Source: Planctomycetota bacterium
Lineage (GTDB): Bacteria > Planctomycetota > UBA11346
NCBI GenBank assembly: GCA_038213805.1
Contig: JBBQSO010000123.1
Location: 1-12,593 of the forward strand
Length of the DNA stretch: 12,593 bases
Reading direction: 5' to 3'
Part shown: positions 1-12,593 of the stretch, piece by piece
How positions within the stretch are numbered: the first letter of the stretch is position 1
How the letters are laid out: every line of letters begins with the position of its first letter
Notes under the pieces: generated by a model
Seen by the model: only the letters and a program-made list of their open reading frames with translations
What the model was told of the DNA's origin: nothing
Databases searched by the model: none
Made by a program: the position numbers and the translations under genes

Positions 1-15
1 CAATGCCGTTCACTT
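1..15 (+). repeat. IS terminal inverted repeat, transposase-distal end (IRR)
   Basis: CAATGCCGTTCACTT is the exact reverse complement of 1339-1353. The transposase stop codon (15-17) overlaps it by one base. Confidence 0.95.
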
Positions 16-1280
16 TAGCCACGTCTTTTCGTGCGCCCATACGGCAGCTTCGAAACGCGCGGAAATGAGCGTCCCGGCCGAGGTTTGTAGGCATGTCGTC
101 GTGCCTCGGTAATCATGGCATCGATTTTGGCAGGACTGCCGTCATCGAGGGCTTTGGCGAGACAGATGCGGGCGATTTCGCGCGAGACGGTGCGATTGGC
201 GCGCTTGTCGTCGGTCAGCCCTGCCTGGACGGCAGCGTGGATGGCCGAGGTTAATGCGACCCACATAAGGACGGTGGCGATCTCTTGCTGGATGCCAGCG
301 GTGCTGCGGGCATGGAAACGTTCGATGCCAAAGGCTTCTTTCATTTCGCGGAAGAGCGTCTCGATACCCCAGCGTTTGCCGTAAATGTCGATGATATCCT
401 TGGCCTCGAAGCCGTGCTTGGGCAGCAAGGTGGTGAGAATGACCATGGTGTCGCGCTTCATCTGGTGCTTCAGCGGTCGCCCGCGCAGCGCCGGACGGCG
501 GATCAAGCGGACAGTCGTCGTGCGACCATTATCTAAACGGCATTCGATGACGGCCGTCTTCGCGCGAGAAGCAACAAAGGCCTTCACCTCCGGCCACGCG
601 CCTGCCTTTGCTGCGGTCATGCGCATGACCACGTCCACGCCGTGGTCCACGAACAGCGCCAACAACCAACGCGCTGGATAGCCGCGATCCATGATCATCA
701 CGTCGCCCGGGCGCAGGCGCTTCAGTAGCGGCGCGGCTGCCGCGCGTTCGCCCGATCCCTTCGGCAGCAGCACCCAATCCAGCGGCAGTCGCCGCACGAC
801 ATCATAGGCGACTACCACCAGCGCCCGAGGATAGTGAGCGAAGAGCCATGGGTTGCTCTTGGGCGCATCCAGATCGGCCATCGTCGAGGGACTGCGCGGA
901 CAGACCAGGCTGGTGGCATCCACCGCGAAGAACCGGCGATCCCGGCGGACTCCAGGATCGCCTGGCAACAAGCGACCAAGGTGGTCCACCAGTTGATGCA
1001 GCACGTGGCGGAATACTTCGACCGGAACCTTCTTTCGTGCCATGCTCAGACTGCTCTTCGACGTTGCCACCACCACGCCCAGTGCGCGACACGACTCCTG
1101 CGCCAAATCGGTCAGCACCGTCGCATAACTCGAGCGCACATCCGGGCGAGTCAGGAGCATCACCGCAACCACCACTGACCGCGGCGACCATCGTCGTATG
1201 CGGGTGAAAGACGTCGCCACGCCGCGCAGCGCAACGGAGAGGTGATGGAGGAGATCATGCGCAGAAGTATGAGGGCTCAT
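15..1280 (-). CDS. tnp: IS4-family DDE transposase (421 aa from ATG 1280, MSPHTSAH...)
   Basis: Catalytic motifs FFAVDAT (D1), MIMDRGY (D2) and YGKRWGIETLFREMK, an exact Y-x2-R-x3-E-x6-K (YREK) IS4 signature. Basic C-terminus (RPGRSFPR). The ORF-track start at 1427 lies outside the IS, so the first ATG inside the element (1280) was chosen. Confidence 0.93.
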   Translation of the reverse strand: MSPHTSAHDLLHHLSVALRGVATSFTRIRRWSPRSVVVAVMLLTRPDVRSSYATVLTDLAQESCRALGVVVATSKSSLSMARKKVPVEVFRHVLHQLVDHLGRLLPGDPGVRRDRRFFAVDATSLVCPRSPSTMADLDAPKSNPWLFAHYPRALVVVAYDVVRRLPLDWVLLPKGSGERAAAAPLLKRLRPGDVMIMDRGYPARWLLALFVDHGVDVVMRMTAAKAGAWPEVKAFVASRAKTAVIECRLDNGRTTTVRLIRRPALRGRPLKHQMKRDTMVILTTLLPKHGFEAKDIIDIYGKRWGIETLFREMKEAFGIERFHARSTAGIQQEIATVLMWVALTSAIHAAVQAGLTDDKRANRTVSREIARICLAKALDDGSPAKIDAMITEARRHAYKPRPGRSFPRVSKLPYGRTKRRG

Positions 1281-1338
1281 TAGGCCCGAAGAAATTTTTT
1301 TTAAAGCGTTGTCAATACTAATATTATGGGTGGTTCGT
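1281..1338 (-). promoter_or_regulatory. AT-rich IS leader, probable transposase promoter region with a TTGACA hexamer (1315-1310, minus strand)
   Basis: The most conspicuously AT-rich stretch in this GC-rich window. It has a perfect TTGACA on the transposase strand followed by an A8 tract, but no convincing -10 box at 16-18 bp. Confidence 0.4.
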
Positions 1339-2493
1339 AAGTGAACGGCATTGGGTCGGGGGCTGGAGTGGGGTCGAGAGGGGCGGAGCGCCAGCTGGAT
1401 CGCTGGTGACGGCGAGCCGATGGGCATTGATCGCTGGGTCGGTCGGCCGGAACCATGCTGGTGTGGCCGATTCCCATGAGTCGTCCTTGTGGCCGACGAG
1501 TTCGAGGAGGGCGCCGCGCAGGAAGGCTTCGTCCTTCATTCCCTCGTAACGCTGGATCCGGCCGGTGCGGCGATCGACGAAGACGTAGGTCGGCGTCACC
1601 TTGATGGCCATGGTCGTTCCCAGCTCGGTCTGATCCAACCAGTTCTCGATGTAATGCGTTTCGACACCGGAGTACTGCAGGAAATCGAGCTGCGACTGGG
1701 TGGTCACACTGTCATTGTCCATCGATACCGTGATGATGCGTGGTCCGAGCTCACGATTGAAGACCTCGGTTCCGAATCTTGCGAAATCCTTGAAGCCCCG
1801 CATGGAGAATGGGCAGTGATGATCCCAGAAGAACATAACTTCCACCATGCGCATGGTGGTTCGCCCCGGGGTACGCGGAACATCTTCCGGCTTGATTCCC
1901 GCGACACGGGCCTGCTGGGGATTCATTACCTGGACGCCCCAATCATCAGCCGTGTGGCCGACGGGCGGCGTCAGCGCGCGATCATTGCTCAACTCGCTCT
2001 TCGGCGGTCGGAACGCCTCGGCCGTCACGAAACCGTGGTCGATGGCGGTCTTCTGCATGATCTGCGAGGCTTCGAGGTAGCGGCGGGCGCGGGTGCGCGA
2101 GGATTCGAGGTAGGCGAGTGCGGTGGTCTCGCTGGGGTTGTCGAGGAAGTTCTTGGTGAAGACGTCGGGGAAGCGCGGGCGGGGATTGCCGTTGGCGTCG
2201 TAGACGGTCTCGGTCCACAGCGGCAGGGGTCCGATCTCGGAGTCGAGGAAGGTCTGCTCGGGGTGGCGCCAGACGGCGCGGTAGATGTCGCCGTGGTCGG
2301 TGGGGATCCAGGTGCCGCCTGCCTGACGGGGCAGCGGCGCCGGGGCGGCGGAGGTCGCGATGGGATCGACGGACTCGTCGACCACGATGATCAGGTCTTC
2401 GGTCACGGGCTCCTCGCCTGGAAGCGAAGCGCCCATGGCCAGCAGAAGCAGGACGATGAGAAGAGCGCAGTTCGGGGCGGGTCGCCAAATCAT
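1324..2493 (-). CDS. traF: TraF-like exported thioredoxin-fold pilus assembly protein (389 aa); native C-terminus replaced by IS sequence
   Basis: The ATG at 2493 overlaps the upstream stop (ATGA, 2493-2490) and is followed by a signal peptide (LLIVLLLLAMGA). FLDNPSETTALAYL...RARRY resembles the TraF N-terminal helical motif (A.dNPt.env..Y...q). Thioredoxin-like VMFFWDHHCPFS and cis-Pro loop IKVTPTYVFVD are present. The last 9 aa (QCRSLTNHP) are read from inside the IS. Confidence 0.65.
   Translation of the reverse strand: MIWRPAPNCALLIVLLLLAMGASLPGEEPVTEDLIIVVDESVDPIATSAAPAPLPRQAGGTWIPTDHGDIYRAVWRHPEQTFLDSEIGPLPLWTETVYDANGNPRPRFPDVFTKNFLDNPSETTALAYLESSRTRARRYLEASQIMQKTAIDHGFVTAEAFRPPKSELSNDRALTPPVGHTADDWGVQVMNPQQARVAGIKPEDVPRTPGRTTMRMVEVMFFWDHHCPFSMRGFKDFARFGTEVFNRELGPRIITVSMDNDSVTTQSQLDFLQYSGVETHYIENWLDQTELGTTMAIKVTPTYVFVDRRTGRIQRYEGMKDEAFLRGALLELVGHKDDSWESATPAWFRPTDPAINAHRLAVTSDPAGAPPLSTPLQPPTQCRSLTNHP
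1339..1353 (-). repeat. IS terminal inverted repeat, transposase-proximal end (IRL)
   Basis: AAGTGAACGGCATTG is the exact reverse complement of 1-15. Confidence 0.95.
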
Positions 2494-3278
2494 GGTGTGC
2501 GCCCGGGATGACGGCGATCGTAGTCGGCTTCCCAGTCCTGAGCGTGCGCGATCCAGGCGACCAGGTCGAAGGCCGGGCCGAAGCCGTCGAGGGTATGGAT
2601 CCGACCGCTCGGCGAAATGAGCCGGAAGCAGGGCGTGGTCTCGACGCGCAGCACGCGGGCGGCGGTCGGGTCGGACAGCACGCCGATGCCCTGGTGATGG
2701 AACTGGGTGAGGAAAAGATTGGTTTCGCCTAGCCAGTCCTTCCAGGCGGCGAGAATCCCGCGCGAGCGCTCCAGGTCGCCGACCTTTGCGGCCGCCATCA
2801 TGGTCTCGCGATAGGTATTGCAGCGGAAGGTCATCTCCTCCCACTTGCGCAGGCTGGCGAGGTGGATGATGCGCTGGCTAGCGAGGCCGGAGCCGCGCAC
2901 CCGCACCAGCGCAGACACCAGACCGGTGAGATCGGGCTCGGCCATGGTCCAGAAGGTCCACAGCCGCCAGCCGTTGCCGGCCAGGGGATCCCGCTCGGCG
3001 GCGTCGGCGACCACGGCCGGGTCACGTAGCACGAGGTGCGAAGCGACGTCCGCCTGAATGCCCTTAAGCATGGACTCGAGATCGACGAGATCGGCGGTGC
3101 CGTCCTGGTGCATCGGGGCCAGGACCTGGTCGGTGAGGGATTTCAGCGAGATGGGATGCGGCGCCTGCGGACGCTGATGCTCGACCAGCCATGGATCAGC
3201 GGCATGCAATGCCGGCGACAGTACCGACGGCAGCGCCGCCAACACCGACAACATCATGAGCAGGGTCGTGGCGGGCAT
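2490..3278 (-). CDS. trbC: TrbC-like (F-type pilin assembly, thioredoxin-like) exported protein, 262 aa
   Basis: RBS GAGGGA 2 nt upstream of the ATG and a signal peptide (…SPALHA/ADP). C-terminal GVLSDPTAARVLRVETTPCFRL resembles the TrbC_Ftype motif (IDP..F..f.I..VPafV). It lies directly after traU, as in plasmid F. Confidence 0.55.
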   Translation of the reverse strand: MPATTLLMMLSVLAALPSVLSPALHAADPWLVEHQRPQAPHPISLKSLTDQVLAPMHQDGTADLVDLESMLKGIQADVASHLVLRDPAVVADAAERDPLAGNGWRLWTFWTMAEPDLTGLVSALVRVRGSGLASQRIIHLASLRKWEEMTFRCNTYRETMMAAAKVGDLERSRGILAAWKDWLGETNLFLTQFHHQGIGVLSDPTAARVLRVETTPCFRLISPSGRIHTLDGFGPAFDLVAWIAHAQDWEADYDRRHPGRTP

Positions 3279-3334
3279 AGTCCCTCATCGTCCTGCGTCG
3301 GGAGCGCAGTCAAACGTGGCAGGAGTAGGAGCCT

Positions 3335-4585
3335 TCACTCCCCGTCGATCAACTGCGGCAAATAGCCTTTGCCGACGTCGAAGTGCTTGGATGCCGTGTC
3401 GCTCGAGGGAATACACCACATGCAGCAAGTGAAGCGTGGCCACAGCGCGCCGGAGACATTGCGATCCTTGTCGCTGAACTTTGGGCCATCCGAGATGGCA
3501 TTATTATTGGTCTCGGCGATCGTTTTGGAGCCGACTTGCGGCATCCACAGCTCCATGTCCCCGTCGATGTCGTTCGAGAGTTGTGAGGTGTCGATGCAGC
3601 TGCTTTTCTTGGTCGGCCACAGCGGCTGGATGTAACCGCCGCGGGTCAGCATTGCGTGCATCGCCGATTCACCATAGCTGTAGGACGAGCTGGAATGCGC
3701 CGAGGCCACCAGCGGCCCGCCCATGCGCAAATGCAGCGGACCATAGAGCATGAAGACGCCGTAGGTGGGATTGAGCGCGTCGTAGGCGCTATCGACCAGT
3801 CCCAGGCCCTGCGACTCGGCGGGATTCACGCCGGCCGACGGGTAGACTGTGCCCCATCCACCGTGGCAGAACACTTTGTAGTAGTCGACGGCGCACAGGC
3901 CGGGGGTTTCGATCACCCGGCTGATGGCGGTGAACGGCGTCAGCCAGGGCACATACCAGTAGGCCGAGACCACGCCGCGCCAGTTGCCGAATTCGGTGCC
4001 GTTCTGGTGGTCACCCTCGGAGGAGAAGGCGTACCCGTAGGGGGTACGCGTGAACTCGTACATGGGCGAGCACAGCGTTTCGAAGGACACCGCGCTGGCG
4101 ATGTATTTGACGATGCTGGCGGTCAGAAACATGTTGATGCAGCGGCCCTGCGTGGTGTTCGACGCCGAGGCGAAGTCGCCCACACGCTGCACCATGGTCT
4201 TCTCAGTGGGCGCCATGTTCTCGTTGAGGCTGTCCATGTGTTCTTCGAGCTGCGACGAGTCGATGGACAGGTGGCCCTGGCGGTCGGAACCCTCGATCAT
4301 CGCCATCGGGGTGTTCATATCGTAGCGGAGGCACACCAGTTCGAAGGGGATGAAGTCGACGGGGCAGATCTCGGTGCCCTTCCACTTGAGGGTCTTGAGG
4401 AAGCAGTTGTCCATCGCGCCGTCGCCGAGGACGTCGATCACGTCCGATTCGGTGAGGTAGGAATCGACTGTGCTCACCGTCGAGCCGGGGGAGTCGCCAG
4501 CGCCGACGCTGGCTTCGGCGGCCAGCCACGTGTTCCCGGACATCAGGGTCAAAAGCAGCAGGAGGGCCCAGCGCAGCGCACGCAT
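3335..4585 (-). CDS. traU: TraU-family conjugative transfer protein (416 aa from ATG 4585)
   Basis: Signal peptide MRALRWALLLLLTLMSGNTWLA and 11 Cys in the mature part. TraU-like motifs are C.....P...IE near the N-terminus, GGWGTVYP.AG, and near-terminal LWPRFTCC. SD-like AGGTGA upstream; the ATG is 1 nt after the upstream stop. Confidence 0.75.
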   Translation of the reverse strand: MRALRWALLLLLTLMSGNTWLAAEASVGAGDSPGSTVSTVDSYLTESDVIDVLGDGAMDNCFLKTLKWKGTEICPVDFIPFELVCLRYDMNTPMAMIEGSDRQGHLSIDSSQLEEHMDSLNENMAPTEKTMVQRVGDFASASNTTQGRCINMFLTASIVKYIASAVSFETLCSPMYEFTRTPYGYAFSSEGDHQNGTEFGNWRGVVSAYWYVPWLTPFTAISRVIETPGLCAVDYYKVFCHGGWGTVYPSAGVNPAESQGLGLVDSAYDALNPTYGVFMLYGPLHLRMGGPLVASAHSSSSYSYGESAMHAMLTRGGYIQPLWPTKKSSCIDTSQLSNDIDGDMELWMPQVGSKTIAETNNNAISDGPKFSDKDRNVSGALWPRFTCCMWCIPSSDTASKHFDVGKGYLPQLIDGE

Positions 4586-4586
4586 C

Positions 4587-7500
4587 TCAATCACCTGAGG
4601 CCTCCGGCACGGCATTGGCCGGATCGATGAACCACAGGTAGGCGTCCCACACCGGCATGCGTGGACTCAGGATGGCGAACTGCTCGGGCGTGGTGAGGGC
4701 CACCGCCTCGTCCCCTGGCCACGATACGCCGGACTCGCTGGCGGCGGATACCACCAGCGCCACCCAGGCACCGCGATCCTCACGGTAGACTTGGCCCTTG
4801 GCGACCAAGCGCAGCAGATCCGCATTCTGGCTCGCCCAGCCATCCCAGAGGGCCTTGGCGCTGGCCCAGGCGGCGTGCTTAGCCGGGAACTCGGCAGTGG
4901 CGATCTCGTAGGCCTTGTAGTCGGCGGCTGCTTTCTGCCAGCTGGCGAGACGGTCCTGGTAGTCCTTGGTATCACTGGCGAACTGGGTGATGGCCGTGCT
5001 GCGCTGGGTGAAGATCGCCTGGTACCAGTCGACCTGGGGCTTGAGTGCGAGCGCCTGGTAATACGGGATGGTCATGGGGTGCGCGATGCTCGCCCAGGAG
5101 ACGTCGTGGCCCGCCGCATCCCTTGGGTGGATGCGGCCCTCATCGTTGGGATCGTTCGAGGCGAGCGCGCGGAGCTCGCCGCTCGGCACGGAGATGCCTG
5201 CGCTGCTCGGCCAGTACTGTCCCGCCACCGTGGCGCCGCTGGCCAGGTCTGAGAAGGTGATGGCGTCGAAATTGACCGAAGCCGGAAAAGTGACGGCTGC
5301 GGGAACCTGGCCGAAGAGGTAGCTCGAGGCATTGGTCCCGGGAATGCCCATGGGATACAGCGCGTCGACGTCATCTGGTGTCCACACCGCTGGCAGGGAG
5401 GCTGTCCCGCCGCCACCCTGGCCCGACATGCGCACCCGCAGCCAGCCGGTGACCGCGGTGTCATAGTGCACCGTGACCGTATCCAGGTACTTCGCGTACT
5501 GGGCCTGCGGCTCCAGGCCGTCGTAGCCTGACAGGTCCCTCCACAGTGCCCACGCGGTGCTGTAGCCGGCGAGCAGCGCCGGAGTCGGCAAGGCGATCAG
5601 GGGGGTGAAGGTCGGGCCTGTCCCATACCCATCCCAATTCTGCAGCGAAGCGGCGGGAGCGTGCGGAGTGTTTCCGGGCCAGTCGACGAACGTCGGCGTC
5701 GCGGGCTCGATCCCCGGTTCGGGCGGGGCCTCGGGAAGGGTCACGTTGGAGGCCAGGAGATCGGCGTAGCCGGCGGGATGAAGAAGGTCGTAGATGTGCT
5801 CGATGCGCGCGGCGCTTGCGGCCACGTCGGTGCTGCGCAGATAGGTCTCGAAGCGCTGACGCCGGGCGAATTCCCCGGAACTGATGTCAAGCGCGCCCGG
5901 CGGCGGGGCGCACTGGTCCCAACCCTCGGTGAACACGTCCTTGGGATCCGCATTGCGGCCGTAGTGGATGTAGACCGAACTCGCGCGGTCGTGGTAGAGC
6001 ACCAGCATCGGATGGCGGAACTGGATGGTCATGCTGCTGGCGAAGGGCTGCGCGGCATCGGGTGCCCATTGCCGGCTGTCGTTCATCGGCCAGCTGCGCA
6101 GCGTGCAGGCGTAGGCGGCGAGCCCGGCCGGCATCGATCCATCAATGCGCACGGGAATGCCGTCGAAATCACCCAGGGTGTCCGGCTTGACCGTGGCGAT
6201 ACGGTTCTCGCCAAAAGACTTCTGCCCGAAATCACCATTCACGCCCATGGTGTCCTGGCCATTCATGCCGATGTAGGGCTCCTTATGGTCGAGCCACTGC
6301 AGGCAGATCTCCTTGATGATGTCCTCCTCATTGGAGCTCTCGATGTCGTGCCGCCCGCCGGTGGGGTCGGTCAGCGTCAGGGAACGGGTCTCAGGGAAGT
6401 AGACGTTGCCCCCCTCCTTGCCGAGCACCGCCTTGATCGCCTCCTTGTCATCGTACTCCAGGCAGATCAGGCGGACGCTGTGCGGCATCCGGCGCGCCAT
6501 GTCCAGTTCCCATTCGCGACCGCGCGCGGCCGAGAACAGGAAGATCTGCTCCTTCATCAGGCGCGCGCGGCGTTCGGTGGCTTGGCGGGTGCGCTCGTTG
6601 GCCTGCTCGGGACTGGCCAACGACGCCAGCAGTGGGCCGGTCAGACCCCCACCACTTTCGCTGCGTTCAACCCGTGCGGAGCCCGGGGCGACCGTGGCGG
6701 TGTTGAGCGCGGGCGAGGCGAGGTTCCAATTGTTGAACCGCTGCGGGATGCACACCGAGTACAGGCAGGTCTCATTAGCCGCGGGCAGCTCGCGACCGGT
6801 GAAGTCATAGTTCCACATCCGGCGCAGCAGGGCGATTTGCTCGGCCACCGTCTTGGGACGGATCTTCTTGCCGCGGAACAGGTATTCGGTGAACCCACCG
6901 ACGACATCGAAGAGGCGCTGGCCGGAGGGAATGCGCACGTTGCCGATGCCGCGCCCGGGACCATAGATGTCGGTGCGCCCATCCCAGGGTGCGACATGGA
7001 AGGTCGCGCGGCCCGGATCGATCCATGGCATCGGGCTCAGCCAGCCGGGGGCGGTATAGAGCACCGTACCGTCTACCCACGCAGCGGCGGGCCCGGGCGG
7101 ATTCGCTGCGGTATTTTCACGCAGCAACCATTCGACCATGACCGTGCCGCTGGCATCGTTGACCAGCCCGGCGTGGGTGATCTTGGGCTTGAGATCGGCG
7201 TAGCCGGGGAACCGGCCCATGTCCGCGGAGTTGAGCCGGAACGCCTGGTCGGTCTTCTGCTTGGCGAGGTTGAAGAATTTCGCGATGAGATCCGATTTGC
7301 CGCGCCAGGCGAGGTTCCAGGGAAAGACGTACGATTGCGGATCGGCGGTGCCGGTGCCGCCCTCGGCGGTCGATTTCACGGTCGGATAGTCCCACATGTA
7401 GGTATCGGCCACCGGTGGGCCGGGGATGGCCGGGGTCTCCATCGGGATCAGCGAAAGGTCGAAGGGGTGTTCGGAGCCATCCCCATCGTCGACGGCGACG

Positions 7501-10070
7501 GGCGTGCTCAGGGTGCGCTCGGAGATGACGGCGCCGCTGCCGTCGCGCACGGTCTCATGGATGATGGTGGGGACGCTCGCATGCGCGAGTTCGGGCGGCA
7601 CCGAGAAGGTGATGTCCGACCACTTCCAGATCCACGGCGGCGAGTCGATGAAGGGACCGAGACGGTCGTACCACACGACTGCATAGTGGACCGTGCAGGA
7701 CTCCATCTCCCGCCCGGGACCGAGATTCCGCACTTGGACCACATCGGCCGACCCAACCGTTGGCAGGATGTCATCCGGCGCTGCACCATCGACTCCAGGA
7801 GTCCCGGCGGTGCGCGACACCGTGTTGCGCAGGCCGAAGCGGTAGAGCGTGGGGTCGTCGGCCTTCTGCGGGTCGAGCGGCGTGATGAAGCCGTTGGCGT
7901 AGTAGGTCTTGAAGCCGCGCCAGGTGAGCTTCCAGTGGTCGAACGGCCGGAAATTCTGCCCGACGCTCAGCACCAGGTCTTCGTCCGCTATCACCTTGCC
8001 GGCGTCATTGCGCCGCGGCTTCTTAATTCCGACCAGAGCGACGCTGTAGGTCGGGGTGGGGAAACCGCCCAGCTCGCTCGCGCCGCCGCCCATCTCGTAC
8101 CACAGCACCTTCATCTTCTTGTAGCCGCCATCGAAGGGATCGTCGGTATAGAAGCGGTCGAGGTCGCCGTCGTCGTCGAAGTCATAGAAAGGATGGCCGG
8201 CGCTGCAGCCGACCGGCAACGGCGAGGCGGGGTTGTCGCCATCGCCCGGCACCGGGTCGCCGGCCTTGTCGGGAATGGTGACGCCGGTGCGCGCGCCGTA
8301 CGTGGCAACCATCGCCGCATCGACGAAGTCGATCGGCAGCATCAAGGCGCCATGGTGGTGCGCGTGGGCCCGGCTCTGCCAGGTGGTGTGCTCCAGGTTG
8401 GGTGCCATCAACTTATTCACTACATCGCCCTTGGAGTAGTACTCGTCCGGCTTACCGGCGATACGCGCCTCGGCCACGGTGCCACTGGCATCCAGGACGA
8501 TCGGTTTCCGCTGCGGCTCGATGGGATTGGCACTGTCGTCGTAGGTGGTGGCAACCTGTTTGTTGAGCGCATCGTCGGAGGCGTCGAGGAGGTCGTTCGG
8601 ATCAAGCGTCGACGTATTCGGCGTACCGTCGGCGCGGGTCCCGTAGTCGAGCGTGGCGCTGGGCTGGGCGCCGGAGGTGAGCGCTGCCTGCATGTCCTGC
8701 TGCTGCTTGCGCATCTGCAGGTCTGCCCCGGCTTGCGCTTCGCGCTGGTCGAGGCCGCTCGCACCAGTGCCGGTGACCTTGGTGGCGATGCGGTCCTTGC
8801 CGTCCGCGGTCGGGGCGTTGTCGGCCGATGAGGTGCCGGCGCGCCGCGCCTTGACCTGCTCCATGACGTCGACCGTGCTCTGCGCGTGGCCGCCGTCGGG
8901 CTGGAAGAACTGCACGTCCTTGCCGGTACGATTGCCGTCGTGGTCGACCTCGGGTACCGCGCCGCGTTCGTGTTCGGTATGCAGGATGGGGCGGTGGGTG
9001 CTGACCGACGGCGGCAGTTCGCTCTGCTTGGCCTGCTGGTAGAGGTTCACCGGACCACCTTCCGCGCCGGCCCTGGGCGGCAGGGCGAGCGGTGGCGTCG
9101 GTGAGCCATCAGGCATGGTCGCGGGGAAGGATGCGCTCGTGAGCTGGTCGTCCGGGAGACCCTCGGTGGTCATCGCGTCCGCCATCGCGAAGCTGCCCTG
9201 ATAGGTCGCGCTGCCGATGGTGAAGGTGCAGCGCGCCCGCCCGTCGCCGGTCTGGTGGTAGTGGCCGCCCAGGACCAGTGCGCGGTTGTACTGCACCGGA
9301 TCGTACGCGGAAGGATCGTCGAGGGTGATGGCATGCTGCAGGACGTAGCGGTACCCGCGTGTGACGTCGTCGATGACCTGGACGTAGGCGCCCTGGTAAT
9401 AGCTGAGGGGTACTGACCGGGCCGCGGCGAGCAGGGCGACGCGCGCCCCTCCCGCGGACAGTGCGCTGGCATCGAGGGTGCCGCGCTGGTAGCAGGTCGG
9501 CGATGACCACGAGAAGGTCTGGGCATCGCTCGCGGTCGGCATCAGGTAGCCGTCGCTGAGGGTCGCGGAGCGCACCGTAGCGCCGCTGATGGCATAGACG
9601 TAAACCGGATTGGCACCGGCGGTCAGCGGCGCATAGGTGGCGGGGGTGGCGGCGTCGAGGATCACCGCGGTGACGCCGGACCCGCTGCTGGTACCGGCAC
9701 CGGTGATGCGCTTCGCCGCATAGCTGACGATCGTCCACCCTGTCGGGGTGCGCACCGCGTCCGGCACGAGCCGCGCGCGATAGAGGGCATTGGTGCCGAG
9801 CGCCGCACTCAGCGCAGCCGCTTGGGCATCCGGCACTGCCACATGCGCTTGGCCGAGGATCAGGGTGCGGAACAGGTCGGGCTGGTTGGTCGCGAACCAG
9901 CCCGACGCGGCCGCGGGCAGGTCGCCCGGTGCGATGCTGCCGTAAACCGGTACGAGCACCTCGGCCCCGTAGGAGACCACGCCGAGGAGGCCCCAGACCG
10001 CGACGCAGCGCATGGATCGCATGGAAACTCCAGGTGGCCGGGTGCGGCGGACGCCGCGCCGGGCGGTCAT
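4587..10070 (-). CDS. Giant exported hypothetical protein (1827 aa; 1811 aa from alternative start 10022), candidate surface or mating-pair adhesin
   Basis: Uninterrupted 5.5-kb ORF with normal GC3-rich codon usage, coupled to both neighbours (ATGA overlap at 10070-10067; 1-nt gap to traU). The alternative ATG at 10022 has GGAG 5 nt upstream and gives a signal peptide MRSMRCVAVWGLLGVVSYGA. No family was recognised; confidence refers to it being a real CDS. Confidence 0.88.
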   Translation of the reverse strand: MTARRGVRRTRPPGVSMRSMRCVAVWGLLGVVSYGAEVLVPVYGSIAPGDLPAAASGWFATNQPDLFRTLILGQAHVAVPDAQAAALSAALGTNALYRARLVPDAVRTPTGWTIVSYAAKRITGAGTSSGSGVTAVILDAATPATYAPLTAGANPVYVYAISGATVRSATLSDGYLMPTASDAQTFSWSSPTCYQRGTLDASALSAGGARVALLAAARSVPLSYYQGAYVQVIDDVTRGYRYVLQHAITLDDPSAYDPVQYNRALVLGGHYHQTGDGRARCTFTIGSATYQGSFAMADAMTTEGLPDDQLTSASFPATMPDGSPTPPLALPPRAGAEGGPVNLYQQAKQSELPPSVSTHRPILHTEHERGAVPEVDHDGNRTGKDVQFFQPDGGHAQSTVDVMEQVKARRAGTSSADNAPTADGKDRIATKVTGTGASGLDQREAQAGADLQMRKQQQDMQAALTSGAQPSATLDYGTRADGTPNTSTLDPNDLLDASDDALNKQVATTYDDSANPIEPQRKPIVLDASGTVAEARIAGKPDEYYSKGDVVNKLMAPNLEHTTWQSRAHAHHHGALMLPIDFVDAAMVATYGARTGVTIPDKAGDPVPGDGDNPASPLPVGCSAGHPFYDFDDDGDLDRFYTDDPFDGGYKKMKVLWYEMGGGASELGGFPTPTYSVALVGIKKPRRNDAGKVIADEDLVLSVGQNFRPFDHWKLTWRGFKTYYANGFITPLDPQKADDPTLYRFGLRNTVSRTAGTPGVDGAAPDDILPTVGSADVVQVRNLGPGREMESCTVHYAVVWYDRLGPFIDSPPWIWKWSDITFSVPPELAHASVPTIIHETVRDGSGAVISERTLSTPVAVDDGDGSEHPFDLSLIPMETPAIPGPPVADTYMWDYPTVKSTAEGGTGTADPQSYVFPWNLAWRGKSDLIAKFFNLAKQKTDQAFRLNSADMGRFPGYADLKPKITHAGLVNDASGTVMVEWLLRENTAANPPGPAAAWVDGTVLYTAPGWLSPMPWIDPGRATFHVAPWDGRTDIYGPGRGIGNVRIPSGQRLFDVVGGFTEYLFRGKKIRPKTVAEQIALLRRMWNYDFTGRELPAANETCLYSVCIPQRFNNWNLASPALNTATVAPGSARVERSESGGGLTGPLLASLASPEQANERTRQATERRARLMKEQIFLFSAARGREWELDMARRMPHSVRLICLEYDDKEAIKAVLGKEGGNVYFPETRSLTLTDPTGGRHDIESSNEEDIIKEICLQWLDHKEPYIGMNGQDTMGVNGDFGQKSFGENRIATVKPDTLGDFDGIPVRIDGSMPAGLAAYACTLRSWPMNDSRQWAPDAAQPFASSMTIQFRHPMLVLYHDRASSVYIHYGRNADPKDVFTEGWDQCAPPPGALDISSGEFARRQRFETYLRSTDVAASAARIEHIYDLLHPAGYADLLASNVTLPEAPPEPGIEPATPTFVDWPGNTPHAPAASLQNWDGYGTGPTFTPLIALPTPALLAGYSTAWALWRDLSGYDGLEPQAQYAKYLDTVTVHYDTAVTGWLRVRMSGQGGGGTASLPAVWTPDDVDALYPMGIPGTNASSYLFGQVPAAVTFPASVNFDAITFSDLASGATVAGQYWPSSAGISVPSGELRALASNDPNDEGRIHPRDAAGHDVSWASIAHPMTIPYYQALALKPQVDWYQAIFTQRSTAITQFASDTKDYQDRLASWQKAAADYKAYEIATAEFPAKHAAWASAKALWDGWASQNADLLRLVAKGQVYREDRGAWVALVVSAASESGVSWPGDEAVALTTPEQFAILSPRMPVWDAYLWFIDPANAVPEASGD

Positions 10071-10879
10071 TGTTCGAGCCCCTGCCGGACCTCCATGGTC
10101 TCGGCGGCGAAGCGGATGCGGGCGGGATAGGTGGTGACGCCGTAGAAGACGCTGAAATCGTCGGTCGCGACCGGATGGATGAGCACGCCGGGATGGGCGC
10201 GCCAGAAGCGGTCGCGATCATCGCCGGAGCGCCAGCCGGTGCAGAAGGCGAAGGTCAGGCGTTCGCCGGTGGCGCCTTCGGCGATCACCCACGCGCGCTG
10301 CGCCGGGTCGCGATCGTCGAAGACCAGCACCTGGGTCGAGGTGCGGATGTCCATGGGCAGGCCCCAGGCCCACACCGGCAGGGGGACCTCGTCGACCACC
10401 GCCTGCGTCGCGCGTGGGAAACCTGTCGGCTGCTCGCGTTTCTGATAGTCCTGGTGCCAGGCGGCGAGGCCGCTGCGCACCAACTCAGCCTCCTTCTGTT
10501 CGCCGAGGCGGGCGATCTGGACCAGACGTCCGGTCACCTCCGGAGAATGCAGGAAGCGGTTGATGCTCTCCTGCTCTTCTGCGATTAGTTCGGCGTCGCA
10601 GCGCTTGGCGCCGCCGGCCGCGCCCCAATCGACCCAGAGCACGGCGCGGTCACCCAGGATTTCATCGCTGACCGCGCGCGGGCTGTCCGGCACGGGGTAT
10701 TCGAGGGCCGCCAGGGGGATGAGAGCGAGGGAGACGAGCAGCAGATGCGGGAAATGCCGCGCGGCAGCGACGCGCCCAGGGCTGGTGAGCGGCGACGAGG
10801 GCGCCAACGCGCTGCCGATCATGCCGGTACCGACCGCCGGGGACTCCGCTCCGAATGTGCCTCTCGCAAATGGACGCAT
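10067..10879 (-). CDS. traW: TraW-like F-type pilus assembly protein (270 aa; start uncertain)
   Basis: AAGGA RBS upstream of the ATG at 10879. A hydrophobic signal segment (LLLVSLALIPLAA) is followed by YPVPD (TraW: yPI.E.D). VLVFDDRDPAQRAWV (TraW: lfiDg.Dp.Q.aWa) and C-terminal YGVTTYPARI (TraW: fgI..vPa.v) are present. Confidence 0.65.
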   Translation of the reverse strand: MRPFARGTFGAESPAVGTGMIGSALAPSSPLTSPGRVAAARHFPHLLLVSLALIPLAALEYPVPDSPRAVSDEILGDRAVLWVDWGAAGGAKRCDAELIAEEQESINRFLHSPEVTGRLVQIARLGEQKEAELVRSGLAAWHQDYQKREQPTGFPRATQAVVDEVPLPVWAWGLPMDIRTSTQVLVFDDRDPAQRAWVIAEGATGERLTFAFCTGWRSGDDRDRFWRAHPGVLIHPVATDDFSVFYGVTTYPARIRFAAETMEVRQGLEQ

Positions 10880-11179
10880 GCCATCCTTCTACCCGCCGCG
10901 AAGTCCAGTAAACCATGGCAAGGTCGCCCGCTGGCATGCGGGGCGGCCGACGGGCAGTTGCCCAACCGCTATGCGGCGGTTTCGCACGTCCCTGACCGCT
11001 CAAGGGGCCGCTGATCGCCGGGCGGCTATCGTTCCTCGCTGCTCGCTGTGCTCGTCTGGCACCATGCGTCTCGCCGTTCGCTCGTCGCCACCGTCATATC
11101 CCGCCCTCGTCTCTCCCTGACCTTCCTCGTGTCTCGCGTCCTGCGCCTTCCGCCGCCCACCCGCAGAGAGTCTCCCGCG
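10880..11179. promoter_or_regulatory. Divergent intergenic control region between traW-like and traD
   Basis: 300-bp gap between two genes transcribed away from each other, so promoters are expected here. It contains short inverted repeats (10923-10981) and a pyrimidine-rich tract before traD. No clear sigma70 consensus was found. Confidence 0.5.
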
Positions 11180-12593
11180 ATGTTCTCCGTCGACACCCGC
11201 ATCGATCACCAGCCCGCCCGCCGCTCGCTGCGCCGCGCCGTCGTCGCGGCCTGGTGCGGCGCGGTCCTGAGCCTGGTCAGCGCGGCGCTGGTGCCGGCCT
11301 GCCTATGGCTGGCACCGCTCGGCCTGCTGGCCTTCGTCGCCTACGCACTGGTGCTCGGCCGGCGTCACCGTGCGCTGCTCGCCGAATTCGCTGAACTCGG
11401 CAAGAAGCGCGGCTTCGCCTTCGCCGCCGGCGTGGTACCGACCCGGCCCGCGCCGCGCACGACGTCTGGCGTCGCAGCGGTGGACTGGACCGCGGAATGG
11501 GTGCCCTTCGCCATGGCCAAGATCGCGGACGACTACCAGGGCGCGGCGGTCACCGCGTGGCGCAAGCAACCCGTCGGTGGCGCGGCGGCCGAGGCGCTCG
11601 CCGCCGCCCAGCTGCGCTGGCTGCGTACCCACCTGCCGGCGCGCTGGACGGTGGTCGCGGGCTGGTGGCAGCGCTGGTTCGTCGCACCCCTGCTCGAGCG
11701 CCGCCACGGTGCGCAACCGCCCACCGCTGCGCAGCGCGACGCCGCGGCCGCCGCGCTCGAGCTCGAGCTGCGCATCGGCGTGGCCATTGCCGGCCAGCCC
11801 GCGCTGTGGGCGCGCCAGCTCGGCTTTGGCGACGAGAGCGCGGCCTATGCCGAGCTCGGCCGGCGCCTCGCCACGGTCGACGAAGGCGGCCGACCGGCGC
11901 TGCCGCCCTTTCCGCGCCAAGCGATGTCGCGCCCCAGCGAGCTGTTTATCGGCCGCGGCTTCCTGTGGGACGCCGAGCACACCCAGCGCATCGAGGACCT
12001 CAAACTGCGCAATATCGCCGAGGTCACCAGCGACCCCGCCGAGCAGGGCGATCCGCGCATCTACGGCATCGGCCACCGCCAGGCCGGCGACCTGTTCATG
12101 GACGAGCCGCAGTTCAACCAGATGGCCGGCATCTTCGGCAGCACCGGCGTGGGCAAGACGCGCTACGCCGAGGCCCTGCTGGTGCAGGTGGTGCGCAGCG
12201 GCCTGCCGCTGCTGGTCATCGACCCCAAGGGCGACCAGGCGCTCACCAACCGTCTGCTTGAGGAATGCCGGCTGAACGGCCGCGGGCACCAGTTCCGCTA
12301 CTTCTGCCTGGCGGCGCCGCAGGACCAGCGCACCTGGAGCTACCTGGCGCGCTACAATCCCTGCTCGTCCTACACCGATCCCGCCGAACTCGCCGCGCGC
12401 ATCGCCGCGGTGCTGCCCTCGACCAAGGACCCGTTCTGGACCAACGTCGCCAAGTCGATGCTTGAGACCTGCATGACGCTGGTGCACTGGACGGGCTGGT
12501 ACTTGCGCTTCCTGTCCCGTGAGCCCGACGGCACCCTGCCGCCGCGCGCCTCGCGCGAGGTCCCGCGCGTGCTGCTCGCCATGCAGTGGGCGC
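11180..12593 (+). CDS. traD: Type IV coupling protein TraD/VirD4 (SXT/PFGI-type conjugative TraD), partial, runs off the window
   Basis: Translated by hand from ATG 11180 (MFSVDTRIDHQPARRSLRRAVVAAWCGAVLSLVSAALVPACLWLAPLGLLAFVAYALVLG...), with no stop up to the window end. It has two N-terminal TM helices, LFIGRGFLWDAEHTQR, GDPRIYGIG, Walker A GSTGVGKT (12137-12160) followed by RYAE, then VIDPKGD, RYNP...ELAARIAAVLP and DPFW, all typical of this T4CP family. Absent from the ORF track because it has no stop in the window. Confidence 0.9.
   Translation, partial: MFSVDTRIDHQPARRSLRRAVVAAWCGAVLSLVSAALVPACLWLAPLGLLAFVAYALVLGRRHRALLAEFAELGKKRGFAFAAGVVPTRPAPRTTSGVAAVDWTAEWVPFAMAKIADDYQGAAVTAWRKQPVGGAAAEALAAAQLRWLRTHLPARWTVVAGWWQRWFVAPLLERRHGAQPPTAAQRDAAAAALELELRIGVAIAGQPALWARQLGFGDESAAYAELGRRLATVDEGGRPALPPFPRQAMSRPSELFIGRGFLWDAEHTQRIEDLKLRNIAEVTSDPAEQGDPRIYGIGHRQAGDLFMDEPQFNQMAGIFGSTGVGKTRYAEALLVQVVRSGLPLLVIDPKGDQALTNRLLEECRLNGRGHQFRYFCLAAPQDQRTWSYLARYNPCSSYTDPAELAARIAAVLPSTKDPFWTNVAKSMLETCMTLVHWTGWYLRFLSREPDGTLPPRASREVPRVLLAMQWA

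Follow-up and report, generated by a model that had tools for sequence, protein, structure and literature searches.

The conjugation protein TraN carries at least 20 conserved cysteines (22 in F) that form disulfides, and it has no barrel but a variable β-sandwich 'tip' that is thought to face the partner cell, according to the available text of one study (PMC9246713). Gram-positive type IV secretion systems (T4SSs) rely on PrgB-type adhesins, as another paper describes (PMC10588982), and in polymer adhesins, some of which are encoded on conjugative plasmids, Ala-rich and Pro-rich repeats flank the adhesin domain, according to a review (PMC7726212). The gene table of ICEclc lists TraG_N, TIGR03755, a TraU-superfamily protein (IceU) and a thioredoxin-like protein in one arrangement and TraD, DUF2859, a VirB1-like protein and TIGR03759 in a second one; the table contains no TraN, and TraN does not occur as a whole word in the available text of that paper (PMC10018362). 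Here we analyze a window of 12,593 nucleotides from a Planctomycetota bacterium (contig JBBQSO010000123.1 of assembly GCA_038213805.1), which is the whole 12.6-kb contig, so that a canonical traN may lie elsewhere on the element, and within it a minus-strand gene (4587..10070) for a giant, putatively exported protein. An earlier note on this DNA had proposed that the giant lies in a traU neighborhood and is a possible non-homologous replacement for TraN.

Our data suggest that the giant is a fixed part of a block of exported proteins in a conjugation module resembling that of ICEclc, which belongs to mating-pair formation class G (MPF_G), and our tentative reading is that it serves as an adhesin of the mating apparatus. 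ICEclc-type systems are widespread and, to our knowledge, have no described adhesin or mating-pair stabilizer. Because the closest system type has no TraN, there may be nothing for the giant to 'replace'.

The giant gene and its conjugation neighborhood

The window has a G+C content of 62–74%. Its long genes lie on the minus strand between about 10.9 and 1.3 kb, with one divergent plus-strand gene from 11048. The open reading frame (ORF) of the giant encodes 1827 aa from its first ATG (10070) or 1811 aa from Met17 (10022), both within the size given by the earlier note (about 1810–1830 aa), and its stop codon is at 4587–4589. The database form, P0002, has 1811 aa and begins at Met17, five bases downstream of a GGAG; residue numbers below refer to it, and its features lie on the minus strand. 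The upstream gene's stop codon and the giant's first ATG share bases (ATGA), the downstream gene starts one base past the giant's TGA, and the giant is therefore translationally coupled to both neighbors. It is a real gene and not a chance ORF, because it has full-length relatives at 38–46% identity and an exhaustive search found 25 relatives. G+C at third codon positions (GC3) is 0.847 in this frame. An antisense ORF of 1056 aa (5661..8831, plus strand) was rejected as a by-product of the high G+C, because its codon-position G+C (0.847 at first positions, GC3 0.638) mirrors that of the giant's frame.

The giant is linked to conjugation genes. Four loci have visible flanks (the window and the related loci L003, L004 and L006), and all four keep, by BLASTP orthology, the same five-gene block: a protein of about 250 aa, the giant, a weakly TraU-like protein, a protein of about 270 aa and a thioredoxin-like protein. 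The giant keeps this position even where its identity falls to 23%, in loci that range from those of unclassified Planctomycetota to that of a member of the Brocadiaceae. Divergent from the block, the window encodes a 3'-open TraD coupling protein (11048..12592, plus strand; TIGR03743, E = 5.9e-34; 40% identity to the TraD of L006), whose tblastn matches coincide with annotated traD genes in the 15 plasmid records listed (of 1936 that matched). The same divergent layout is found in L006, where a MobH relaxase (1.8e-29) and a 1298-aa TraD (5.9e-69) lie upstream. After the block, the three related loci encode a TIGR03755-like protein of 637–718 aa (6.2e-8, 6.8e-4 and 3.2e-5), which is followed in L004 and L006 by a multi-transmembrane protein of more than 1045 aa with a TraG-like build; the TraG_N profile gave no match to that protein. 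All matches to conjugation families in the block and its flanks (TraD, MobH, TIGR03755, DUF2859 and TraF) are below curated cut-offs. In addition, contig sizes of 36433 and 55630 are each shared between a giant (P0003 and P0015) and a homologue of the 416-aa neighbor encoded just downstream of the window's giant.

This gene content resembles that of ICEclc in having a TOL/SXT-type TraD next to a DUF2859-like gene, then TraU-like, thioredoxin-like, TIGR03755-like and TraG-like genes, together with a MobH relaxase, the comparison resting on matches below curated cut-offs and on loci that do not extend to VirB4. The two differ in that the ICEclc gene table holds no giant-like gene and has a VirB1-like gene after DUF2859. 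The Planctomycetota block appears to be a divergent version of both ICEclc arrangements, in which the giant has been added behind the DUF2859-like gene.

The traU neighborhood of the earlier note stood in part: the cluster is a conjugation cluster, with TraD adjacent and linkage to tra genes kept in all four loci, but the presumed traU is only weakly TraU-like and the giant lies upstream of it. This neighbor (3335..4585, minus strand) encodes an exported protein of 416 aa with 11 Cys. None of nine members of its family matched Pfam TraU (PF06834) at E ≤ 10, and one of two further orthologues scanned, that of L004, did so at E = 0.0018 with 18.1 bits against a cut-off of 26.5. When the family (12 sequences) was compared by hhalign with an alignment of seven annotated plasmid TraU/TrhU proteins, the match extended over 21 columns (E = 0.0028, probability 11%), in which FCHGGWGTVYP aligned to FWCAGxWGxxYP; tblastn of the neighbor against plasmids found nothing at E ≤ 1. 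A relation to TraU is plausible because of the synteny with TIGR03755- and thioredoxin-type genes. The neighbor family is small and well conserved (eight database homologues and three in the fetched loci), and its invariant motifs are EGDHxNGTEFGNWRG, PWLTPFTA, FCHGGWGTVYP, YGPLHLR and WPRFTCC, of which the third alone aligns to TraU.

Similarities between the giant and TraN are those of general design. Both are large exported proteins without a β-barrel and with a variable β-sandwich, the gene of each adjoins a traU-type gene within a conjugation cluster, and the job we propose for the giant, holding donor and recipient together, is that of TraN. However, the giant has 10 mature Cys against at least 20, is two to three times as long as F TraN (602 aa) and lacks sequence or profile similarity to it: the TraN profile (PF06986) did not match the giant at E ≤ 10 in Pfam, NCBIfam gave no TraN match at E ≤ 1, the TraN hidden Markov model (HMM) matched none of 26 relatives at E ≤ 0.01, and hhalign of a 4-sequence giant profile against an annotated 1330-aa TraN returned E = 0.41 with a probability of 0.1%. 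The gene order differs as well, traN being downstream of traU/trhU in the four annotated plasmid loci of class F (MPF_F) that list traN (Simplicispira L001/L002, L009 and L011), whereas the giant is upstream of the TraU-like gene in a module that is ICEclc/MPF_G-like and not MPF_F. The gene is near, yet outside, the TraN slot, and the protein is not a TraN, in agreement with the earlier note. The Simplicispira plasmid (NZ_CP027670.1, MPF_F) encodes, beside its 1330-aa TraN, two large unannotated proteins, one of 1250 aa after a transglycosylase gene (L001 24226-27978) and one of 1454 aa after traH (L002 13876-18240); hhalign of the giant family against the 1250-aa protein found nothing.

Family conservation and predicted architecture

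Searches of Pfam, NCBIfam, PHROGs and PADLOC, even at lax thresholds, gave no family match for the giant, and PHROGs and PADLOC gave none for its four neighbors either. A word-indexed search of 5.8 billion clusters returned three relatives. When residues 603–1802 were run by phmmer exhaustively against 1.84 billion representatives, 25 relatives emerged at E ≤ 1e-3, 16 of them at E ≤ 1e-30, with lengths reaching 2431 aa. Pfam domains above cut-off are absent from all 26 relatives scanned, and those with names are called only 'Planctomycetota bacterium, hypothetical protein'. Scanning the contigs of species-representative genomes with a 20-sequence alignment yielded four loci (L003–L006), all from Planctomycetota metagenome-assembled genomes and one of them from Brocadiaceae; the scan with a 4-sequence alignment had given 85 pattern matches and no relative. 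The giant had no tblastn match among plasmids (72,556 records), the 4-sequence profile reached a best E of only 0.13 in a sequence search of the PDB, and the ESM Atlas gave nothing usable for the whole giant and, for residues 985–1400, a best score of 0.79, a value that the tool itself ranks as noise. No full-length match to TraN or to another known family was found in the profile libraries or by Foldseek of residues 490–1811. The giant founds an unannotated family, so far only in Planctomycetota among named records and fetched loci. The homologue in L005 (1-5047), a 5-kb contig on which a giant is the sole gene, is split over two frames (1..3519 and 3345..5045), by a frameshift or an assembly error.

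The giant is predicted to be a Sec-exported, Cys-poor protein of about 190 kDa that is carried at least across the inner membrane. Its sole hydrophobic stretch, residues 6–24, fits the single N-terminal signal peptide described by the earlier note; transmembrane-like windows were called as a 19-aa Kyte–Doolittle average above 1.6, and the leader was judged in this way and not with a dedicated signal-peptide predictor. The leader-like segment (residues 1–20; 9963..10022) has two Arg before the hydrophobic core and ...SYG/AEV after it. Among 15 N-terminally complete family members, 14 have a leader-like N-terminus and 13 have no internal transmembrane-like window. P0002 has 11 Cys, one within the leader, which leaves 10 in the mature part (0.6%), the number that had been estimated before; Cys content ranges from 0 to 1.9% among 34 family proteins and fragments, with a single invariant Cys. 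The C-terminus (...PANAVPEASGD) does not end in an aromatic residue and its region is predicted to be helical, which agrees with the earlier statement that it is no barrel, and an LPxTG-plus-hydrophobic tail was not found there (...FIDPANAVPEASGD; no transmembrane-like window).

Conservation along the protein is uneven. After the leader, an N-terminal domain (residues 21–300; 9123..9962) that starts with the family motif V-x-V-Y-G aligns well only to closer relatives, and a gap-rich, poorly conserved linker rich in Q, A, D, T and G (residues 301–489; 8556..9122) separates it from a conserved central core (residues 490–1400; 5823..8555). Within the 20-sequence alignment, invariant positions are confined to two blocks of this core. 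The first, RRxxLxxxxxFxFSAARGREWExxMAxRMPxxxxLxCVE (residues 1146–1190; 6453..6587), is the most conserved segment of the protein, with 73% identity among close relatives and F1163, S1164, G1168, R1169, E1170, E1172, A1176, P1180, L1185, C1187 and E1189 invariant. The second, EFRHPMLxxYxDRxSxxYxxYGxNxDP (residues 1335–1360; 5943..6020), contributes the invariant R1336, H1337 and S1348. Further upstream, an acidic motif, PGDGDNP...HPFYDFDDDGDLDR...DDPFDGGY (residues 586–634; 8121..8267; 64% identity among close relatives), is invariant in the four closest proteins; its DxDxDG-type part at 613–622, nearly invariant in 17 sequences, fits the calcium-loop pattern DxDxDGxxD. When six closer relatives were compared with the window protein, segment identity was 73% at 1151–1200, 64% at 601–650 and 55–57% at 1301–1400, against 28–33% at 1501–1650, 19% at 1251–1300 and 28–29% at 51–150. 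Variable segments, which the earlier note had suggested looking for among homologues, are therefore present, and the segment with the β-sandwich described below (1501–1650) is among the most variable. The giant is also the most diverged gene of its block, with 38% identity to its L003 orthologue versus 51–59% for the neighbors.

Structure prediction with AlphaFold 2 (AF2) was run on residues 490–1689 with a 26-row alignment and on residues 1400–1811 with 23 rows, so that the models cover 490–1811 of 1811 residues. The first model has a mean predicted local distance difference test score (pLDDT) of 62.1 and a predicted template modeling score (pTM) of 0.53, and contains several β-rich and α/β domains with low-confidence linkers between them (about 1111–1137 and 1248–1288, the Pro-rich stretch at about 1425–1500 being a further linker), much as the earlier note had described alternating β-rich regions and linkers from the sequence. 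No fold was matched to the core: Foldseek with the 1200-residue model found nothing at E ≤ 1e-3 in the PDB or in BFVD. LmcA, thioesterases and the tetanus-toxin C-fragment, which headed these searches, were dropped as weak top rows with a root-mean-square deviation (rmsd) of about 30 Å.

The C-terminal model (412 aa) is far more confident, with a mean pLDDT of 86.6 and 2 residues below 50, and consists of two short helices, a long non-helical Pro-rich stretch, a β-sandwich, one long helix and a short tail. The Pro-rich stretch (about 1425–1500; 5523..5750), mostly confident in AF2, has prolines that are conserved family-wide. The β-sandwich (about 1527–1634; 5121..5444) is predicted by AF2 and lectin-like by Foldseek, and lies inside the variable 1501–1650 segment. 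The single helix of about 100 residues (1661–1761; 4740..5042) bears aromatics at exact heptad spacing (F1681-Y1688-W1695-Y1702, F1712-W1719-W1726 and Y1746-W1753), and is followed by a conserved C-terminal tail, GVxW...PxWxAYxWFxDP (4590..4739). Foldseek of this model against the PDB gave two matches at E ≤ 1e-3, both to Cea1A (E = 7.5e-4, probability 1.00), and further listed matches are CBM6, CBM35, Epa1A, Epa6A, Flo1, Flo5, KpFlo2 and a PA14-containing protective antigen; the lectin and carbohydrate-binding module (CBM) matches span E = 7.5e-4 to 5e-2, with 8–18% identity among the matches listed. PA14 lectin domains (Cea1, Epa and Flo) and CBM6/CBM35 are the best structural matches of the sandwich; they differ from it in that the TM-score is at most 0.38 and Pfam gives no match, so that they denote a lectin-like jelly roll or sandwich and not membership of a family.

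At the sequence level, the profile of 20 sequences matched GbpC (E = 0.0036) and an AgI/II-type adhesin (E = 0.006) among PDB sequences, both on the heptad-aromatic helix, and the Pro-rich stretch aligned below significance to the Pro-rich end of GbpC. The resemblance in design to the PrgB/AgI/II-GbpC adhesins is striking, the giant likewise having a Pro-rich stretch across the β-sandwich from its helix. The sandwich itself, however, is PA14/CBM-like and not a GbpC V-domain (GbpC, AgI/II and PrgB chains are absent from the best 50 Foldseek rows of the C-terminal model), LPxTG is missing, the host is a diderm, and the adhesin-like module is the last quarter of the giant only. The similarity is borderline and may reflect convergence. 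By length arithmetic, an extended polyproline tract of about 60 residues has about the same span as a helix of about 110 residues. A two-copy prediction of the C-terminal 412 aa scored 0.00; having been made without controls, it carries no weight either way.

Adhesin, scaffold, enzyme or passenger

Our tentative model, which is quite possible though short of probable, is that the giant is a conjugation-linked adhesin of the mating apparatus. The core (about 490–1400) would dock it to the envelope or to the secretion machine, and the C-terminal quarter would form a long stalk in which the Pro-rich strand runs along the 100-residue aromatic-heptad helix, in the manner of AgI/II, GbpC and PrgB but in reversed order. 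The stalk would hold out the variable lectin-like β-sandwich, which could bind a glycan or a different surface polymer, either of the partner cell or of its own cell's envelope, and donor–recipient contact would be stabilized in this way. A broader version of this idea is distinctly speculative and, as it stands, unlikely: the giants would define, in bacteria with two membranes, a new class of adhesins for conjugation, unrelated to TraN, with an independent and reversed PrgB/AgI-II design of stalk plus lectin, partner choice read from glycans, and a 900-residue core of new fold plugging into an ICEclc-like machine. As for the proposed TraN replacement, what held up is that the giant is not TraN, is linked to conjugation and has an adhesin-like C-terminal quarter; the word 'replacement' sits poorly with a module that is of an ICEclc-like type without TraN.

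Several observations weigh against the adhesin model. ICEclc transfers without any giant-like protein in its gene table, and genomic context is directly visible in four loci only. The order of the giant's parts (Pro-rich stretch, domain, helix) is the reverse of that in PrgB/AgI/II-GbpC. The fold match of the sandwich is weak, with a TM-score of 0.38 by target and 0.22 by query and an rmsd of 7–8 Å, and Pfam PA14 (PF07691) does not match the giant at E ≤ 10. The matches to GbpC and AgI/II are borderline and composition may explain them, and the window's own C-terminal 427 aa have no PDB sequence match at E ≤ 10. That the Pro-rich strand packs on the helix is inferred from pLDDT alone, and a crude test of joint length variation between helix and Pro tract was null (Spearman –0.36, p = 0.13, n = 19). 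About 1,400 of the 1,811 residues have no fold match, and the models begin at residue 490. The most conserved part of the protein is the core, whose invariant residues (R, E, E, C, E, R, H and S) would be as much at home in an active or ligand-binding site as on a surface for docking. Finally, we found no barrel, no consistent lipobox and no recognized outer-membrane or secretion signal beyond the Sec-type leader, and the default location is the periplasm because no surface-targeting feature beyond that leader is present.

The main rival to the adhesin model, because nothing shows a route of the giant to the surface, is that it is a periplasmic structural part of the secretion machine, a scaffold that spans or organizes the planctomycetal periplasm, grips peptidoglycan or envelope glycan and braces the channel. 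We consider this possible but on the unlikely side. A Sec-type leader without an outer-membrane targeting feature is what such a protein would have, all its neighbors in the block are exported too, its core is strongly conserved while its ends vary, it is tightly coupled in translation to its neighbors, and a lectin- or CBM-like fold could bind cell-wall glycan. However, the giant diverges faster than its neighbors and carries a variable domain on a stalk-like module, both of which are more typical of outward-facing proteins, and the ICEclc table holds no comparable periplasmic giant. We know of no T4SS with one.

Improbable, in our view, is an envelope-remodeling enzyme whose active site in the core opens the cell wall as a stand-in for a VirB1-type transglycosylase. 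The invariance of R1169, E1170, E1172, C1187, E1189, R1336, H1337 and S1348 in 20 sequences would suit catalysis, the giant follows the DUF2859-like gene in the same place as the VirB1-like gene in the ICEclc table, and no lytic transglycosylase was seen in the four loci. Yet neither sequence nor fold matches a hydrolase, transglycosylase or peptidase, C1187 falls in a strand predicted within a hydrophobic segment, a setting in keeping with a structural residue, and the loci are incomplete and may leave a VirB1-like gene out of view. Among the invariants we considered a Cys-His-Asp triad and an ADP-ribosyltransferase-like R-S-ExE pattern but dropped both, since the residues are wrongly ordered and spaced for them and neither has support from a fold.

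We give slightly less credence still to a passenger gene, that is, a general giant surface or exported protein of Planctomycetota that is carried for host benefit or exclusion and stands outside the transfer machine. Characterized conjugation systems have no giant relative, and context is visible for few of the 25 relatives. Mobile elements also often carry cargo. The giant, however, has the same position between the same block genes in all four loci, down to 23% identity, and is coupled by start and stop codons to both neighbors, whereas cargo rarely stays so firmly in one place among the machine genes of an operon. Least of all do we credit a TraN homologue diverged beyond recognition: a large exported protein adjoining a TraU-like gene in a conjugation cluster would fit one, as would a variable β-sandwich without a barrel like that of TraN (in the available text of PMC9246713), but the HMM and hhalign results, the Cys count, the gene order and a module type without TraN all speak against it and make it very improbable.

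Neighboring genes and significance

The gene upstream of the giant (10067..10879, minus strand) encodes an exported protein of 270 aa, its stop overlapping the giant's first ATG, with orthologues in L003, L004 and L006; the L006 orthologue, one of four, matches DUF2859 at E = 2.8e-4, below cut-off. Downstream of the TraU-like gene, an exported protein of 262 aa (2490..3278, minus strand) belongs to no known family and has orthologues in L004 and L006. It is followed by a thioredoxin-like exported protein of about 388 aa from MIWRP... (1324..2490, minus strand; Thioredoxin_2, E = 5.3e-5, below cut-off), whose orthology was assigned by BLASTP; the L003 orthologue matches TraF (PF13728) at E = 4.4e-4, again below cut-off, and BLASTP of the window protein against the TraF of the Simplicispira plasmid found nothing. 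Thiol-disulfide oxidoreductases usually have Cys-x-x-Cys, and the window protein carries CPFS, a Cys-x-x-Ser pattern.

At the contig end, an IS4-family transposase (15..1427, minus strand; NF033592, E = 1e-45, above cut-off) occupies the slot that the TIGR03755-like gene has in the three related loci; either an insertion sequence (IS) interrupts the operon or the assembly broke at a repeated IS. This ORF shares its first ~100 bases with the 3' end of the thioredoxin-like gene, and its true start is therefore probably further in.

Other features of these loci are recorded here in their own right. TraD has a long extra N-terminal region in these elements, the profile match beginning at about residue 326 in the window protein, and the TraD of L006 (3142-7038, minus strand, 1298 aa) is about twice the usual size. 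A few kb past the block, L003 has a prepilin-type N-terminal methylation motif (about 15835-16275, plus strand; N_methyl, E = 0.0021; PilV-like, 9.2e-5), which could belong to a type IV pilus linked to the element; the long open frame around it probably comprises more than one gene. L004 encodes a staphylococcal-nuclease-like ORF (112-636, plus strand; SNase, E = 3.1e-6) just 5' of the block and a 389-aa protein with a lipoprotein-like LAGC leader (12056-13225, plus strand) between the TIGR03755-like and TraG-like genes.

Literature searches combining Planctomycetes or Planctomycetota with conjugation terms found, among the papers listed, no description of conjugation machinery in this phylum, and the phylum name Planctomycetota is absent from the available text of a 2025 review of T4SS nomenclature. 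The giant is new as a family, and the function proposed for it is of a known kind. Our finding is computational and most of the giant remains unexplained, but a conserved, operon-embedded exported protein of this size (about 190 kDa), whose tail resembles an adhesin, is a candidate for the contact function that is missing from ICEclc-type systems. The giant also draws attention to an entire divergent conjugation module, none of whose exported components reaches a family cut-off. Should the giant indeed mediate contact, partner recognition in conjugation would have been invented more than once, by unrelated proteins; as a scaffold or as an enzyme it would remain a new part of the machine, linked to a cell envelope that is itself unusual.

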